In this document: positions 19,423-26,106 of the stretch, in pieces
Numbering within the stretch: position 1 is the first letter of the stretch
How the letters are laid out: every line of letters begins with the position of its first letter
Assembly: GCA_947626095.1 (NCBI GenBank)
Contig: CANQQV010000005.1
Location: forward strand, 1 to 64,000
From: an uncultured Bacilli bacterium
Lineage (GTDB): Bacteria > Bacillota_I > Bacilli_A > RF39 > UBA660
DNA: 64,000 nt
Direction: 5' to 3'
Program-made: the position numbers and the translations under genes
The notes under the pieces: model-generated
What the model saw: the letters and a program-made list of their open reading frames with translations, nothing else
Told to the model about the DNA's origin: nothing
Databases searched by the model: none

Positions 19423-20518
19423 TTAGTTCATTTTTAGAATAGATTCGATAAATGGTTTAATATCGCCATCTAAAACTTTATCGGCTTCAGCGGTTTCATA
19501 ACCAGAACGAGTATCTTTAACCATTTTATATGGTTCTAAGACATAACTTCTTATTTGACTACCGAAATCAATTCCTGTACTTATACCTTTTAATTTAGCT
19601 AGTTCTTGTTCCTTTTTCTCTTGTTCTAAATTAAATAATTTACTTTTTAAGACTTTCATAGCTTGTTCTTTATTTTGTAGTTGACTACGTTCATTTTGAC
19701 AAGTTACAACTATTTTACTAGGAAAGTGTGTAATTCTAACAGCTGATGGCGTGGTATTAACACCTTGACCACCATGTCCACTAGCACAATAAGTATCGAT
19801 TCTGATATCTTCTTCTTTGATTTCAATATTAATACTTTGATCTATTTCAGGTATAACGGAAACAGAAGCAAAGGAAGTATGACGGCGTTTATTAGAATCA
19901 AATGGGGATATTCTAACTAAACGATGAACGCCTTTTTCACATTTAAAATAGCCATATGCATAATTACCAGTAATATGTAAAGTGACTGATTTAAGGCCTG
20001 CTTCTTCACCAGCTTGTTCTTCCATTACTTCGTATTTAAAATCATTTTTATCACAGAATCTTTCATACATACGAAGAAGCATACTCGCCCAATCACAAGA
20101 CTCGGTACCACCAGCACCAGGATGAATTTCTAAGTAACAAGCAAAATTATCATATTCGCCGTTTAATAAAGTGTTTATTTCTAATTCGTTTATTTCATTA
20201 ATTAAGGTTGGTAAACTGGCTTCTATTTCATTTTTTAATTCTTCACTATAATCTAATTCTAGTAAATCAATTATTTCTTCATTATCTTTTATTTTTTGAC
20301 TAAGATCTTTGTATGAACTAATTTCTTTTTTTAATAAGGATAGTTCTTGGTTAGTTTGATTAGCCGTATCAATATCATCCCAGAAATTAGGTTCATTCAT
20401 TTTACTTTCTAAAGAGGCAATTTGACTTTCTTTAGTAGTAATGTCAAAGTGACCTCCCAATAGTTTCTAATCTTGCACTTTGTTTATTTAATTCATTTTT
20501 TATTTCTTTTAATTCCAT
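19423..20518 (-). CDS. prfB: Peptide chain release factor 2 with programmed +1 frameshift
   Basis: ORF1 from ATG 20518 (MELKEIKNELNKQSARLETIGRSL) ends at GGGAGG-TCA-CTT-TGA-C (CTTTGAC at 20443-20449); the +1 frame has SPF and GGQ. Confidence 0.96.
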
Positions 20519-20556
20519 TTATATCACCTTTTTTATTATATCATAAAGAAATTAAG

Positions 20557-20579
20557 AAAAAAGTGACATAAGTCACTTA
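20557..20579 (-). terminator. Intrinsic terminator after the purZ-like gene
   Basis: AAGTGAC-TTAT-GTCACTT hairpin running into a T-tract on the minus strand. Confidence 0.65.
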
Positions 20580-20581
20580 TA

Positions 20582-21955
20582 TTATTTTGCAATTGGTTTT
20601 ACCAATTCTTTCTTTAAGATACGATCATTGTTTTTAGAGCCAGTTCCTAAAGCTAATATTTCTGCACCGGTTTCATTTTCAAGCCAAGACAAATATTCTC
20701 TTTGATAGCGATCAAAATACATTTTATTAAAGTCACCAACTGTTGCAAAGAAATCATAATCTAGATGCTGAAAGAAATTTAGGTATAAACCATATGGTGA
20801 ATTAATACGACAGTTGTTTTTAAGTTTTTGAATATCTAAATCAAAGATACGGCGTTCCATCTTAGTAACAGAAGTTTGTTCTGATTGATCAATAATTGTA
20901 TTAGGTGGAAAATCACTATCAACCATAGGTAATTCAATAATAGCGCTTTCATAAATGTCTTCCCCTTTAGATTTATGATATAGTCTTTCTAATTCTAAAG
21001 CTTCTAGTAATGTTATGGTAGTTAAATCTTTTTGACGAAAGTTAGGACCAAATAGTTGTTTTAAATACATAGATGGACATTTAGTAAGTAATTTTTTGAT
21101 GTAAGTATAATTAATATGATGATTGAAACACTCAACATCGCCTTCACACGGATACTGACCAAACATGGAAGATAAATTTACTTGCATCCAAGTTAGTTTA
21201 GCACCTGTACCATAATCACCAGTATAATGATATTCGCCACTAGGAGTAACATTATTGATACGAATAGGAAATGGTCTTATAACCATAATTGTTTCTAAAA
21301 GACGTTCAGCAGAAATGCCACTATCGGCTAGTAATTGAGTTGTTGAAACATTACGACTTGTAACATATGGATAGTTACCACTATGATTTAAGTCTAAATC
21401 ACATCCTTGAGCTCCCTCTAATAAGACATATTCATTAGGATTATCAAGATGACTATATAAACGATCTAACCACTCATCATTAGAACAAACAACTAGATCT
21501 TCATAGGATTTAAAAAATTGGAGGTTTTCGTCACGAATGATTTTGGCCATTGAGACAGCACCACAGCCTTTATTAGTAGAACCAGATTTAATATGAGTTT
21601 TTTCGTAGTCTTTATGAGATTGTTCAATAAGAGGTACTAGTTCATGAACATATATTTTACGACCATTTAGAAAATGGCGAACATTTTGGTATTCTTCTTT
21701 TATGACAGCCATATCAATAGCTGAGCCGGGGCCAATAAATAATTCAGTATGAGGATTAACACAAGAAACAGGAATATTTCTAAATAAAGTACGATGGCCT
21801 TGTTCATCAACAAAAGTATGACCAGCATTAGGCATACAGTTAGTAATAGCAGCACCAAGGTTTATATTTTTGTCAGTAGCTATTTCACCAACAACTTTTG
21901 CTTTACCACAACTACCGGCAGCTCCATCAATAACAGAAATGACATTCTTTAACAT
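20582..21955 (-). CDS. purZ: Adenylosuccinate-synthetase superfamily protein of the PurZ (2-aminoadenylosuccinate synthase) type
   Basis: GSCGKAK (Ser in place of the PurA catalytic Asp of GDEGKG), MPNAGHT, EGAQG, YPYVTSR, FPIRI, TSVTKMERRIF, LNFFQH; these resemble phage PurZ rather than PurA motifs. Start 21955 (ATG) or 21964. Confidence 0.8.
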   Translation of the reverse strand: MLKNVISVIDGAAGSCGKAKVVGEIATDKNINLGAAITNCMPNAGHTFVDEQGHRTLFRNIPVSCVNPHTELFIGPGSAIDMAVIKEEYQNVRHFLNGRKIYVHELVPLIEQSHKDYEKTHIKSGSTNKGCGAVSMAKIIRDENLQFFKSYEDLVVCSNDEWLDRLYSHLDNPNEYVLLEGAQGCDLDLNHSGNYPYVTSRNVSTTQLLADSGISAERLLETIMVIRPFPIRINNVTPSGEYHYTGDYGTGAKLTWMQVNLSSMFGQYPCEGDVECFNHHINYTYIKKLLTKCPSMYLKQLFGPNFRQKDLTTITLLEALELERLYHKSKGEDIYESAIIELPMVDSDFPPNTIIDQSEQTSVTKMERRIFDLDIQKLKNNCRINSPYGLYLNFFQHLDYDFFATVGDFNKMYFDRYQREYLSWLENETGAEILALGTGSKNNDRILKKELVKPIAK

Positions 21956-21987
21956 AAAAACCACTACTTTCTTAAGTAATGGTTTTT
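21956..21987 (-). terminator. Hairpin/terminator after the Ig-repeat gene, overlapping the purZ-like translation initiation region
   Basis: Minus strand AAAAACCATTACTT-AAGA-AAGTAGTGGTTTTT immediately followed by the ATG. Confidence 0.6.
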
Positions 21988-22035
21988 ATTTTAATACATT
22001 TTTAAATGTAAGTATAGACTTATTAACCTTATTAT

Positions 22036-25000
22036 TTATATTTTAAATATTTTTTCCTTATATACTTTTCTAATAATTGAAATAAGTGGTAACATAAACA
22101 TTAATATTATAATAAATCTAGCAAAATAACCAGTGATTGGATTTTGGGGTTTATCTTCTTCAGGAGGTTGAGTTTCTGAGTCATCTGGTTGTGGACCATT
22201 TAATGATTCAATAATAGTGATTTCCGTACTATCACTAATATCTGTTCCTTCGATTTCAACTGTTATAGTAACTGTTCCTAAATCATGAGCAATAATATTT
22301 CCTTTTGAATCTATAGTTGCGATTTTATCGTTATTACTTGACCATTTGATATTGGTTATTTCAAGATTTTCAGGATATACTTTATAAGTAAGTGTTAGGT
22401 TTTCATCTAATCTTAAAACATCTTGAGTTTTAACAATTTCAATTCTATCAGGAGTTTCTGAAACGGTTAATTGAACAGACGAACTAATATTATCTTCTTC
22501 GATGGTTCCGGTTATTTTTGTAGTTCCAACACTCAAAGCTGTAACAATTCCTTCTTCATTAATGATAGCGACTTGTTCATCACTACTCTGCCATTTTATA
22601 TCTTTATTGGTTACATCACTTGGCTCCATAATAAAGGTCATTTTTTGTTTGGCTCGTTTTGGTAAATTATATGTACCTGTTATTGTAAATTTATTAACAG
22701 CTTTTCTTACATAAACAAGACATTCACTCTTACTTTTATTATCTTTTGATATTGCTTTTATAATAGTTGTACCATTGTTTTTAGCTAAAATATTTCCTTC
22801 ATTATCAACTGTTGCGACTTCTTCATCACTTGAAGACCAATTGATATCTTCAAGAGTATACCCAGTTAATGTATAATCGACCTTTTGGCTTTCACCAGCT
22901 TTGATTTGGTAATTTGTTTTATTGAAGGTTATTTTTTTTGTTTCATCGTTTGTTGGTTTATTTAAGACAGATACAATAACGTTTTCTTCGATATTATTAT
23001 GTGATGTTAATTTTATTGTTGTATTACCTGGGGCGACAGCAGTAATTTGTCCTTGTTCATTTACAGTAGCGATTCTTGGTGTAGAACTTGTAAAATTGAT
23101 TACTTTATTACTAGCCGTTGTTGGTAATACTTGATATTCAATATTAGCTTGATCACCGACATATAAGACATAGTTTTTCTTTGGGATGGCTATTTTAGTA
23201 ACTTGAGTTGTAACATTTACTTTCACACTAGCTGTAACGCTTCCATCACTAGTTGATGCAGTAATTGTGGTTGTTCCATTTTGTAAAGCTCTAACTATGC
23301 CAGTGTTACTAACCGTAGCTATGTTACCATCTTGACTATGCCAAATTACATTTTTGTCAGTAGCAGTAGTTGGAGTGATTTGAACTTTTAATGTTTGAAA
23401 GTCATTAACGTTCATATTTAGTTCAGATGGGACAATTGATAATGATTTAACTTTTGTTATGACTCTTACTACACAAGTTGCTGATAAATTACCATTTTCT
23501 GTTGTTGCAGTTATAATGGCTGTACCATTATTTATGCCAGTTACTTTTCCGGTTTGATCTACTGTGGCAATTGTTGCATTATTAGTACTCCATCTAATGT
23601 TTTTATTAGTTATATTGGCTGGGGTAATTGTTGCTATTAAATTGAAAGTATTAGTTCTTTCCAAAGTATAATCAGTATAATTAAGTTTTATGCTTGTAGC
23701 ATTGTCGGTGACGTTAACTACACAATTAGCAGTCTTATTATTTGATGTACTAGCTGTAATTGTGGTTGTTCCTTTACTAAGAGCTGTTATTTTACCTGTA
23801 CTATCTACCATAGCAACACCCTGATTTGAACTAGTCCAATTAACTGTTTGGTTACTTGCTGTTGAAGGTAGGACATTAGCGGTTAAATTATAAACGTCTT
23901 CGACATTTAAAGTTAGTTGATTTTGACTTAGAGTAATACCAGTTGGTTCAGTTGTAACTGTTACAGTACACTGAGCTTCTTTACCATTAGATGATGTAGC
24001 TTTGATAACAGCAACTCCATTAGATATAGCACTAACTACTCCGTTATTATTAACAGAAGCTACTCCCGCATTTGTAGATGACCATGTAATTGTTTTATCA
24101 AGAGCTGTAGTTGGACTAACAGTGGCAACTAAAGTAAACTGACTTCCAGCATTCATATTTAAAGATGTTTGATTTAAAGTTACTGAGTTGACTATTTTGG
24201 CATATTCGGCTGCTGGTGTTTCTATATCAACTACTACATTTGTACAATTATTGTAGTAATCGCAGACTTGAACTGTAGGATTCTTAGTTGTTGGGGAGAA
24301 TGTTTTAGTTACAGTAGTTGTATTAGATTGAGTCCAACCATCTGGAGCTTTAATTTCATCTTTAGATGATAATGTAATTTTAATATTATTACCACTTAAT
24401 TCTGGTTTTTGAGTTATTTTTGGTTTAAATGTCGCTTCGGATGTAGTATAGAATTTATAACCATAAGTGTTATCTGTTTTTCTTGTGGCATAACCAAGGT
24501 ATAATTTATTGCCTTTAAAACTTAGTGATTCAATTTCACCAATTTGGTCACTTATATGAAAGACTTTAACAACTTTACCAAAATTAACGTTAGGTGTTCC
24601 ATTTTGATTTAATTTGGCATTATATACAATTACGTCTGATGTGGCATGAGGTTCATAACAATACATTGAGTATTTGTGATATCCTGCATTTCCTGGAGTA
24701 CACGAATTCGTTGATTGATAAACAATTGTATATAAATATCCATTATGATATTCAATACCACCAGTAACACCTAAGGCAATTGAATCGATAGAATATAATC
24801 TTTGTTGAAAATCTTTGGAAACAATATAATATCTTCTGGCATAACTTCCTATATATTTATCATGGAATTTATCGTATGTTATTCCAGTGTAAGCGATAGG
24901 AGTTTTAATAACTGAACTGTAACTTAAATCCGAGTCATTATTATATAGTGAAACATAGTTGTATTTATATGGACCAACTACTAAAATCTTCTTTAGTTTT

Positions 25001-26106
25001 GTATCATATGTTAAATCGTTACCATGGCCACCAACTATTTTTCGATAATTTAAACCTTTATTGCCATTAGTTACTATACCGGCAGTAACTTGTTCAGTTG
25101 AATAAGTACCTGATTTATTTAGGTTATAACTTAATAATAAACCTTGGGCTTTTTCATTTTTGTTGGAATAAAATATTAAATTATCACCAGCCCAAGTAAC
25201 TCCTTGAAGTTGAGTATATTTACCTTTTTCTTTGTTCTTATCATCTTTTAAAGCTTGACTTAATTCTTTAACTGGAGCAGTATCAATCATACCGTTTAAG
25301 ATAGATTCATTAGAATAAGTATATTCTTTATCAACATAGCCAAAATTAGCATAATTGGTTAACTTTATATTGGTTTTACTGGCTTGCTTGCTACTAAATA
25401 TTTTCTTATTCAAAGTTATAACTGGTCTAATTCCTCTAGAGCCGGTTTTTTTCGCATAATTAATATTACCAGTATAAGTAACGCATAAGGCGTAATTACT
25501 ATCGTCAGTAGCAGAATTATTCGTCCAATATCCTGGAGGACTAGCTTTTTCTTTACCATTTAAATATTGTTTATTATTTAAAAAATAGAATGAGTTAATA
25601 TAAGTAAATGATACTTTTACATCTGGGGAAATAGCTGAATAACCATCAGTTTTTTTGGCAGGTGATTTACTAGTATCAATTTTTAATATGTTATATATTT
25701 GTTTTTTAGTTATAATAGATGGAGTTAATTTTTGACCTTTTTCATCAACCCAATTTAATTTATTTAATTCGGTTTTTCTATCTGTCCAAGAAGCAAAACC
25801 AATATCGTGGTCCAACATAACTTTAACTTGAGAATTGCTTGTATCACTATCCTCTATGACAAAGAAACGGTAGCAATTGACATTATTATAAGGTGTCCAG
25901 TAATTACTACAAGTAGTACCTTTAATAGGGTTATAATATACATATTCGCCGATTCTATAAACTGGATATGTTTCAGAAGACAAAAAATCTTTGATTCTTG
26001 TAATTACAACAGATATTTGATTTCTAAATATAAAAGAAAATATTATAGCAATCATTACAATTAACAGCATTGTAAGGGAAAGAAATGTTCTTTTTTTACT
26101 TCTCAT
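22036..26106 (-). CDS. Large surface protein: signal/TM, N-terminal domain ending RGIRPVITL, propeller-like region, about eight Big_2 Ig repeats, NPITG sortase-like motif and TM
   Basis: Repeats of WxSSxxxVAxVxxxGxVxAxxxGxxxIxA; C-terminal PQNPITG, hydrophobic stretch and basic tail. Confidence 0.85.
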   Translation of the reverse strand: MRSKKRTFLSLTMLLIVMIAIIFSFIFRNQISVVITRIKDFLSSETYPVYRIGEYVYYNPIKGTTCSNYWTPYNNVNCYRFFVIEDSDTSNSQVKVMLDHDIGFASWTDRKTELNKLNWVDEKGQKLTPSIITKKQIYNILKIDTSKSPAKKTDGYSAISPDVKVSFTYINSFYFLNNKQYLNGKEKASPPGYWTNNSATDDSNYALCVTYTGNINYAKKTGSRGIRPVITLNKKIFSSKQASKTNIKLTNYANFGYVDKEYTYSNESILNGMIDTAPVKELSQALKDDKNKEKGKYTQLQGVTWAGDNLIFYSNKNEKAQGLLLSYNLNKSGTYSTEQVTAGIVTNGNKGLNYRKIVGGHGNDLTYDTKLKKILVVGPYKYNYVSLYNNDSDLSYSSVIKTPIAYTGITYDKFHDKYIGSYARRYYIVSKDFQQRLYSIDSIALGVTGGIEYHNGYLYTIVYQSTNSCTPGNAGYHKYSMYCYEPHATSDVIVYNAKLNQNGTPNVNFGKVVKVFHISDQIGEIESLSFKGNKLYLGYATRKTDNTYGYKFYTTSEATFKPKITQKPELSGNNIKITLSSKDEIKAPDGWTQSNTTTVTKTFSPTTKNPTVQVCDYYNNCTNVVVDIETPAAEYAKIVNSVTLNQTSLNMNAGSQFTLVATVSPTTALDKTITWSSTNAGVASVNNNGVVSAISNGVAVIKATSSNGKEAQCTVTVTTEPTGITLSQNQLTLNVEDVYNLTANVLPSTASNQTVNWTSSNQGVAMVDSTGKITALSKGTTTITASTSNNKTANCVVNVTDNATSIKLNYTDYTLERTNTFNLIATITPANITNKNIRWSTNNATIATVDQTGKVTGINNGTAIITATTENGNLSATCVVRVITKVKSLSIVPSELNMNVNDFQTLKVQITPTTATDKNVIWHSQDGNIATVSNTGIVRALQNGTTTITASTSDGSVTASVKVNVTTQVTKIAIPKKNYVLYVGDQANIEYQVLPTTASNKVINFTSSTPRIATVNEQGQITAVAPGNTTIKLTSHNNIEENVIVSVLNKPTNDETKKITFNKTNYQIKAGESQKVDYTLTGYTLEDINWSSSDEEVATVDNEGNILAKNNGTTIIKAISKDNKSKSECLVYVRKAVNKFTITGTYNLPKRAKQKMTFIMEPSDVTNKDIKWQSSDEQVAIINEEGIVTALSVGTTKITGTIEEDNISSSVQLTVSETPDRIEIVKTQDVLRLDENLTLTYKVYPENLEITNIKWSSNNDKIATIDSKGNIIAHDLGTVTITVEIEGTDISDSTEITIIESLNGPQPDDSETQPPEEDKPQNPITGYFARFIIILMFMLPLISIIRKVYKEKIFKI

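Follow-up and report, generated by a model that had tools for sequence, protein, structure and literature searches.

Phage-encoded PurZ proteins, which catalyse the first step towards the unusual DNA base 2-aminoadenine (Z), are the closest described relatives of the gene considered here, and phage PurZ depends on the adenylosuccinate lyase of the host, PurB, for the next step. In the available part of one study, S23, T273 and Q308 of the S-2L enzyme are given as the PurZ-specific substrate-contacting residues (PMC8342488), and the available part of another describes Asp13 as essential and 99% conserved in PurA (PMC12884076). As far as the accessible text of the latter goes, its 2026 phylogeny of the PurZ group contains phage proteins and four archaeal sequences only. 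No description of cell-borne PurZ-type genes was found in a literature search whose coverage left out the key 2023 paper and the supplementary trees and alignments (PMC12884076, PMC8342488), possibly with bacterial sequences. The window analysed here, a whole stretch of 64,000 nucleotides from contig CANQQV010000005.1 of an uncultured Bacilli bacterium, carries a PurZ-like ligase gene, named PurZL, which is PurZ-type and not PurA-type by sequence, fold and tree, the exceptions being the curated profile cut-off and the Z-cluster context. The best reading, to which we give about even credence, is an ATP- and aspartate-dependent (d)GMP ligase of PurZ type that resides in cells without prophage context. 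The folded insertion, the Ppx/GppA-type upstream gene and the Nudix-fused sister clade described below are new here. The gene lies as follows:

20585..21955, minus strand: PurZ-like ligase gene PurZL, 457 amino acids from the ATG at 21955, stop codon at 20582-20584

The open reading frame (ORF) covers 20582-21964 on the minus strand, and an alternative GTG start at 21964 would give 460 amino acids. The translation of PurZL (P0001) contains all five PurZ-like motifs named in the original prediction, AGSCGKAK, PNAGHT, FPIRI, TSVTKMERRIF and LNFFQH, which sit on GSTGKG (of 7ODX and 6FM1), PNAGHT, PIRV, TTVTK..RR and LNFAQY/LNFCNY, respectively, in the alignment to solved PurZ chains. All four canonical PurA motifs (GDEGKG, (S/T)xRVG, GATTGRxRR and xKxD) differ in PurZL, and the canonical PurA of the same genome has GDEGKG, SRVG, GATTKRPRR and LNHLD at these sites. 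PurZL scored only 87.9 bits against Pfam PF00709, the adenylosuccinate synthetase family, and 93.1 bits against purA TIGR00184, the cut-off of which is 395.55. Its best NCBIfam model was PurZ NF038379 (173.8 bits), followed by the archaeal-type PurA PRK04293 (141.8 bits), and in PHROGs it matched the PurZ family phrog_1211 with 165.5 bits. The PDB sequence ranking ran from S-2L PurZ (101 bits) and phiVC8 PurZ (95) through PurZ0 and Pyrococcus PurA (both 89) to Escherichia coli PurA (37). In addition, the ESM Atlas clusters nearest to PurZL belong to PF00709 and are mostly viral, which serves as a lead only. The G+C content of the gene is equal to that of its surroundings.

The substrate-contacting residues of S-2L PurZ have aligned equivalents in PurZL, namely Ser15 (S23, at the Asp13 site of PurA), T361 (T273) and Q396 (Q308), and the guanine-specifying Asp of the GTP site, which is kept in the PurA of the same genome, is replaced by Gln. 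Ser occupies the Asp13 site in 143 of 149 aligned rows (nearest clusters and references), and G14, S15, G17, K18, H46, T127, R141, Q183 and R368 form a catalytic core that does not vary across 60 aligned relatives. The AlphaFold2 model made from this alignment reached a predicted local distance difference test score of 94.3 and a predicted template modelling (TM) score of 0.93. Its top Foldseek match was phiVC8 PurZ (E 5e-26, TM 0.85, target), and further target TM values were 0.86-0.88 for Pyrococcus horikoshii PurA, 0.81 for S-2L PurZ, 0.80 for PurZ0 and about 0.65 for long bacterial and eukaryotic PurAs. PurZL is predicted to be catalytically competent. Its membership of the family by sequence, fold and tree, its conservation and context and the genes of its carriers are directly observed, and its substrates, deoxy preference and product fate are inferred. 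One part of the protein sets the family apart:

20885..21184, minus strand: family-specific insertion, approximately residues 258-357, lying between the PIRI and TSVTK..RR loops

The alignments to PurZ break at query residues 258 and 357, and PurZL therefore has about 100 extra residues, which were modelled confidently as a helical subdomain (helices 256-264, 273-276, 283-292, 295-302 and 316-329). The insertion is present in P0001, P0095, P0122 and P0127, and the other aligned rows have a short one or none; phage PurZ and the short relatives borne by cells lack it. Its conservation across 76 family members is moderate. Moreover, position 367, beside the Arg pair of the aspartate loop, holds a Glu in at least 90% of these members; this Glu was seen neither among the aligned references for phage PurZ nor in P0123, P0124 and P0126, which are short forms. 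As a separate observation, P0128 (372 amino acids), a sister of the window's clade, carries AGDCGKGK, with Asp again in place of the Ser, and no longer has the TVTK loop (EIIPHDGEVRRV), which may represent a reversion or a functional change inside the clade.

Two quick maximum-likelihood trees of 86 and 77 rows, rooted on the bacterial PurA of the window's genome, carry Shimodaira–Hasegawa-like approximate likelihood ratio supports only, without bootstraps. The 86-row tree was drawn from 149 candidates and contains the core, the reference rows and every second other row; fragments shorter than 300 amino acids were excluded beforehand, and P0157, P0158, P0172, P0206, P0222, P0236, P0249 and P0255 were left out. 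The 77-row tree was hand-picked, and a named archaeal PurA is in neither tree. In both, the positions near the root are taken by PurZ0 and other proteins with the Asp motif. The ATP-type Ser-bearing proteins, including PurZL and the PurZ of Bacillus phage vB_BpsS-140, form one clade (support 96 in the 77-row tree), inside which the characterised PurZ enzymes make up one branch and an AGSCGK clade (98) another. The AGSCGK clade consists of the window's clade (99-100), a viral IMG/VR clade and a cell-borne clade of short, Nudix-fused and GNAT-fused proteins (100), the last being the sister of the viral clade. Profiles, alignments, Foldseek and trees thus agree with the original prediction in assigning PurZL to the PurZ type rather than the PurA type. 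Its further suggestion that the gene had been domesticated from a phage is left without a direction, since viral and cellular branches interleave and the direction of transfer is therefore unsettled. Long PurZ-group homologues were also considered as functional fusions and rejected, as those of 734-798 amino acids contain inteins with LAGLIDADG homing endonuclease modules and one of 551 amino acids has an N-terminal HNH module (P0158, P0172, P0222, P0249 and P0206, 551-798 amino acids).

PurZL is not an isolated case: it is one member of a large family found in cells, which has sister clades. A word-indexed search gave 628 relatives at E<=0.001 among 8000 candidates scored, and the best 120 listed are 453-488 amino acids long, 67-100% identical and located on contigs of up to 141 kb. 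In data with one genome per species, at least 164 genomes encode a PurZL relative, and the best 80 of the 164 are all metagenome-assembled genomes (MAGs) of uncultured Bacilli, 'Tenericutes' or 'Mollicutes', recovered from the gut of rabbits, chickens, mice, ruminants and humans; one relative lies on a closed 1.5-Mb chromosome. Within the genus of the window, full-length orthologues occur in 5 of 24 other species, together with one fused relative. Across the order, PurZL was found in 21 of 300 other genomes and, counting G000 with its genus, in 18 of 128 genera; two of the copies have internal stops and three are fragments or partial. PurZL is thus an accessory chromosomal gene of small-genome gut Bacilli, patchily distributed within its order. 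The ratio of nonsynonymous to synonymous substitutions (dN/dS) was 0.075 and 0.105, at dS 0.90 and 0.73, against the two nearest orthologues (L019, L020); this purifying selection and the wide spread bear out the conservation check proposed earlier and argue against a decaying relic. No IMG/VR contig carried a relative above 40% identity, and the 15 viral relatives found are 373-411 amino acids long and without the insertion, the three inspected lying in phage replication modules. The sequence itself occurs in six DNA sequencing runs of two studies (rabbit gut, and gut), none listed as RNA.

To survey the neighbours, the ORFs of 81 family loci (785 flank ORFs) were clustered. The flanks are highly variable, with one exception, a Ppx/GppA-family gene directly upstream. 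It encodes 298-301 amino acids on the same strand, lies 12-33 nt upstream in 38 of the 81 loci, scores 32 bits against the Ppx/GppA Pfam model (cut-off 27) and has weak PDB matches to GppA and exopolyphosphatases. In the family tree, which holds 76 of the 81 proteins (five shorter than 430 amino acids were dropped), the pair is concentrated in one subclade of 52 rows, where 36 have it. A paralogue, 29% identical to this partner of the relatives, is present elsewhere in the window's genome.

A second hydrolase is joined to the sister clade by fusion. The congener G016 has, between nth and the gene for a penicillin-binding protein, a gene for a 526-residue protein with a Nudix domain ahead of an insertion-free PurZ-like domain, and a search with this protein found 1443 proteins at E<=1e-20, which represent the sister cell-borne clade. 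Its best 120 clusters comprise 38 Nudix–PF00709 fusions (among these a protein named 'adenylosuccinate synthetase 2 [Clostridium sp. CAG:440]'), two GNAT fusions and 80 with PF00709 alone, the last mostly of about 360 amino acids and on contigs of up to 762 kb. The fused Nudix domain matches human MTH1, which hydrolyses oxidised purine nucleoside triphosphates (NTPs), with E 2.5e-32. Beside the unfused family, the strict Nudix-box pattern was found in 4 of 785 flank ORFs versus 4 of 1512 genome-wide, and hence without enrichment; this test is weak because the pattern missed Nudix genes found by Pfam (clusters 28 and 93), and the Nudix link rests on the fusion only. Individual loci were observed with such genes: in L070, a Nudix gene lies directly upstream of the PurZL orthologue, and in L080, L085 and L086, which hold orthologues of 65% identity, a Nudix gene lies a few genes downstream and a 309-residue RibD_C-domain protein is nearby, the C-terminal part of which resembles nucleoside 2-deoxyribosyltransferases by eye only.

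The window is contig C5 of a MAG of 1.6 Mb in 34 contigs, 91% complete with 7.9% contamination. This genome encodes a canonical purA (530 bits), purB (341 bits) and NrdD, and a route to the triphosphate of 2-aminoadenine deoxynucleoside (dZTP) is therefore conceivable in it. No family match was found in it for IMP dehydrogenase (IMPDH) or GMP reductase (GMPR), the C-terminal domain of GMP synthase or deoxynucleoside kinase. Without the IMPDH/GMPR and GMP synthase families, the organism seems unable to interconvert adenine and guanine nucleotides by the usual routes, and with NrdD and no deoxynucleoside kinase match, dGMP would come mainly from dGTP hydrolysis or DNA breakdown. A role in salvage from guanine to adenine nucleotides via GMP reductase was dropped, as no IMPDH/GMPR match was found and this gives no account of a Z-type product. 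The whole-genome search suggested earlier for purA, purB, datZ and mazZ was thus positive for the first two, and relatives of datZ and mazZ were not found; one generic MazG-family match lies elsewhere in the genome, at C18. As a side observation, the genome also has a second divergent PurA-like gene (locus L002) of 476 amino acids with GDEGKG and 225 bits against PF00709. It stands in a same-strand row (C4:306-4673) with a pyruvate-kinase-barrel-like protein (308 amino acids), a uridine-kinase/PRK-family protein (188 amino acids) and a third protein, which resembles the Ser/Thr-kinase defence models PD-T4-6 and MkoA in its C-terminal part. G005, G121 and G148 have PurA-like genes of a similar kind.

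Of 20 other carrier genomes examined, only the five of the window's genus with a full-length gene gave a match for canonical PurA, and in the 14 from other genera (91-96% complete) PurZL is the only PF00709 gene. Besides the window's genome, purB was found in one of the 20 (G005), and a search with the PurB protein of the window's genome as query gave nothing in the five carriers searched. The Lyase_1 family, which includes PurB, was likewise found in two of the 21 carriers and not in the other 19, of which 15 have a completeness of 90% or more and a contamination of 5% or less. Across the order, purB was detected in 13 and PF00709 at E<=1e-50 in 18 of 301 genomes, the latter including 15 other genomes with canonical PurA; these 18 and the 21 carriers of the order sample do not overlap. 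Canonical PurA (about 490-580 bits) without PurB was also observed in the congeners G001, G010, G018 and G023 and in G110, G116, G133, G288, G293 and G296 of the same order. The search in these ten genomes used TIGR00928 in all and the Lyase_1 family in the four congeners only. This combination hints at an unrecognised adenylosuccinate lyase in the lineage, and MAG incompleteness may explain part of it.

The setting of PurZL is the core chromosome, probably near the origin. Its upstream neighbour encodes a 1356-residue Big_2 surface protein, with metK beyond it; prfB, tilS, ftsH and parA/parB follow downstream, and an MscS-type channel gene, ychF and ssb are also around. The surface-protein gene (window 22036-26106, minus strand) has at least eight Big_2 repeats and lies between metK and PurZL; in L019 and L020, the two nearest species, metK directly abuts the PurZL orthologue, and the Big_2 gene therefore marks a local insertion or loss. 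Pfam found no phage-type genes among the 17 neighbouring window ORFs scanned, and no phage-like flank proteins among these 17 and the representatives of about 15 flank clusters of the other loci (785 flank ORFs in all). In prfB, a classical programmed +1 frameshift site (window 20440-20520, minus strand), with a Shine–Dalgarno-like GGGAGG and then CTT TGA C, was also observed, and it accounts for the long prfB ORF starting at an internal TTG. Two signals flank the gene:

20561..20578, minus strand: terminator-like hairpin and T-run, 4 nt past the stop, a 7-bp stem and then TTTTTCTT (consensus scan)
21954..21989, minus strand: 16-bp hairpin and U-run into the ATG, folding energy -21 kcal/mol (z -4.0), equalled by 0 of 200 shuffled sequences

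The context described in the original prediction, between a surface-protein gene and prfB with its own terminator and no phage genes, agrees with the Pfam scan and the hairpin at 20561-20578. The hairpin at 21954-21989 probably terminates the Big_2 gene upstream, and the likely ribosome-binding site of PurZL lies within it, together with two bases of the start codon, the first and second. The 80-nt spacer before PurZL showed no promoter-like site on the minus strand, and PurZL expression may depend on read-through. Rfam matches in the 301 bases around the PurZL start were at chance level only, none near the gathering score, and a search for riboswitches and leaders at 12 loci at the Rfam gathering score gave only a SAM riboswitch before metK and two tRNAs.

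If PurZL is a PurZ-type (d)GMP ligase, ATP would phosphorylate O6 of a guanine mononucleotide, and L-aspartate would then displace the phosphate. The substrate would most likely be dGMP, as suggested by partner hydrolases and by a reductase that acts at the triphosphate level, and the product would be N6-succino-2-amino-(deoxy)adenylate. In the relatives, a purine NTP phosphohydrolase, either the operon-borne Ppx/GppA type or the fused MTH1-type Nudix domain, would supply the substrate as MazZ feeds PurZ. In this genome, PurB could carry the product on to the 2-aminoadenine deoxynucleotides dZMP and dZTP, and in most other carriers the succinylated nucleotide would be the end product or be handled by another enzyme. 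The proposal of Z-nucleotide synthesis is therefore conceivable here, where purA, purB and NrdD are present, and it does not stand as a general role of the family: with PurB absent from most carriers, synthesis via host PurB cannot be that role unless another lyase exists.

Several observations weigh against the ligase reading. The NF038379 score is below the curated cut-off of 300 bits, with only residues 7-261 matching the model, and in both trees PurZL lies outside the characterised PurZ clade (phiVC8, S-2L), in a sister position. The Ppx/GppA link belongs mostly to the 52-row subclade and is thus partly inherited rather than a set of independent repeats; the window's own three-species clade has no Ppx-like neighbour and shares the order metK-gene-prfB instead. 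The Lyase_1 family is missing from 19 of the 21 carriers, so that most have no textbook lyase route; the pathway would then run through another enzyme, stop at the succinylated nucleotide or use a donor other than aspartate. Ribose specificity and amine donor are not readable from the sequence, and the insertion of about 100 residues adjoins the aspartate loop and could alter specificity. In the window's genome, moreover, purA and purB lie on contig C1, apart from the window on C5, in a MAG with the contamination given above; S-2L DatZ and MazZ gave nothing below E 0.35 by tblastn against its 1.6 Mb, and no DpoZ-type partner was found.

Among the rival readings, one that we regard as unlikely is a dead-end sink for guanine deoxynucleotides, a defence-like or pool-control function in place of Z synthesis, in which the partner hydrolase would convert dGTP to dGMP and PurZL would trap it as a succinylated nucleotide that cannot be recycled without PurB, lowering the dGTP of a phage or controlling the pool. 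The lack of PurB-type lyases in the 19 carriers fits this, as do the patchy spread with its interrupted and partial copies, the highly variable flanks and the linkage to NTP phosphohydrolases; against it, the window's genome and G005 have PurB, and the annotated neighbours are housekeeping or metabolic genes, with no sensor or regulator. No defence family in PADLOC-DB 2.0 was matched at E<=0.01 by P0001 or the Ppx-like partner, which gives the anti-phage role proposed earlier no known family to join; the Nudix domain of the G016 fusion matched the candidate family PDC-S07. The lack of any fumarate-lyase-family protein in most carriers would suit a PurB-independent aminase, in which ammonia or another amine replaces aspartate and a single step leads from (d)GMP to (d)ZMP or from IMP to AMP. 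PurZL is the sole PurA-family gene in 14 of the 20 other carriers, and the conserved Glu367 stands beside the Arg pair of the aspartate loop. This activity nevertheless appears improbable, since the aspartate loop T-x-V-T-K..R-R is kept as in PurZ (T361, T364, R368, R369) and the texts consulted describe no such activity for the fold. PurA itself accepts hydroxylamine.

Ordinary AMP synthesis by a divergent short PurA, which would make adenylosuccinate from IMP, could be read from the same 14 carriers, as well as from a fold as near to P. horikoshii PurA as to PurZ. These carriers also lack PurB, however, and the window's genome already has its canonical PurA; Ser replaces Asp13, the residue called essential for PurA in the available part of PMC12884076, and Gln replaces the guanine-specifying Asp of the GTP site, which makes this reading very improbable. 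A decaying or strain-specific phage relic is scarcely credible and was rejected on dN/dS, spread and chromosomal setting: the nearest named relatives are phage proteins and a few copies in the order have stops or are fragmentary, but the dN/dS of about 0.08-0.10, the full-length relatives in 164 species genomes, the invariant catalytic residues and the lack of an IMG/VR relative above 40% identity all speak against decay. A bolder extension of the ligase reading, which we consider rather improbable, is that the organism, with PurZL, PurB and an NTP-reducing NrdD, may make dZTP and put 2-aminoadenine in its own DNA, partly or conditionally, or that the carriers without PurB work lyase-free, by direct amination or with a functional succinylated end product. 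If 2-aminoadenine in its own DNA were true, this would be the first cellular organism with Z-DNA.

A PurZ-type enzyme as a conserved chromosomal gene in gut Bacilli raises the question of whether cells make 2-aminoadenine nucleotides. A second question is the role of such a ligase in genomes without adenylosuccinate lyase; a new pool function, one-step amination chemistry or cellular Z-DNA could be the answer. As well, the interleaved viral and cellular branches bear on the origin of phage PurZ.

Compared with the known systems, PurZ0 (Gordonia phage Archimedes, PDB 7VF6; Arthrobacter phage Wayne) resembles PurZL in having Ser where PurA has Asp13 and in its short fold (TM 0.80), whereas the PurZ0 proteins of Archimedes, Wayne and Goodman have GSEAKG in place of GSCGKAK, keep the donor-base Asp (L[ST]M.DQ) where PurZL has LNFFQH, and form a separate clade near the PurA outgroup, apart from PurZL. 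The short PurA of Pyrococcus horikoshii (PDB 5K7X/2D7U), which was compared by fold and profile score, has the same compact fold, and its structure has GTP and IMP bound according to the entry title. The closest viral relatives are the PurA-annotated PurZ homologue of Bacillus phage vB_BpsS-140 (38.5% identity) and IMG/VR proteins of up to 40% identity. The latter (AGSCGKGK) share with the window's family the Cys after the Ser, and the vB_BpsS-140 protein has GSEGKGK; unlike PurZL, both are only 373-401 amino acids long, lack the insertion and lie in phage replication modules on viral-called contigs. The PurZ enzymes of phiVC8 (PDB 6FM1/6FKO) and S-2L (7ODX) share with PurZL the short PurA-type fold (TM 0.81-0.85, target), Ser in place of Asp13, the PIR[VI] loop and an additional loop that follows it, TxVTK..RR and the ATP-type LNFxQ/N motif; their identity to PurZL is 21-23% across the structure and about 32% in the N-terminal 250 residues. 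PurZL differs from them in its folded insertion of about 100 residues, its clade and its cellular genome, and most of its carriers are without the PurB needed by phage PurZ. In place of a Z-cluster (DatZ, MazZ/DUF550 and usually DpoZ), its neighbours are housekeeping genes, and the cellular chromosome without such a cluster claimed at the outset is upheld by them and by the insignificant tblastn matches of S-2L DatZ and MazZ. The last comparison is with the phage MazZ–PurZ module (dGTP to dGMP to dSMP), in which mazZ overlaps purZ in S-2L. The linked hydrolases of the PurZL family (ASKHA and Nudix) are unrelated in fold to MazZ (MazG), their substrates are putative, and the window's own PurZL has no such neighbour; the likeness lies in a purine NTP phosphohydrolase joined to the ligase, by operon or by fusion.

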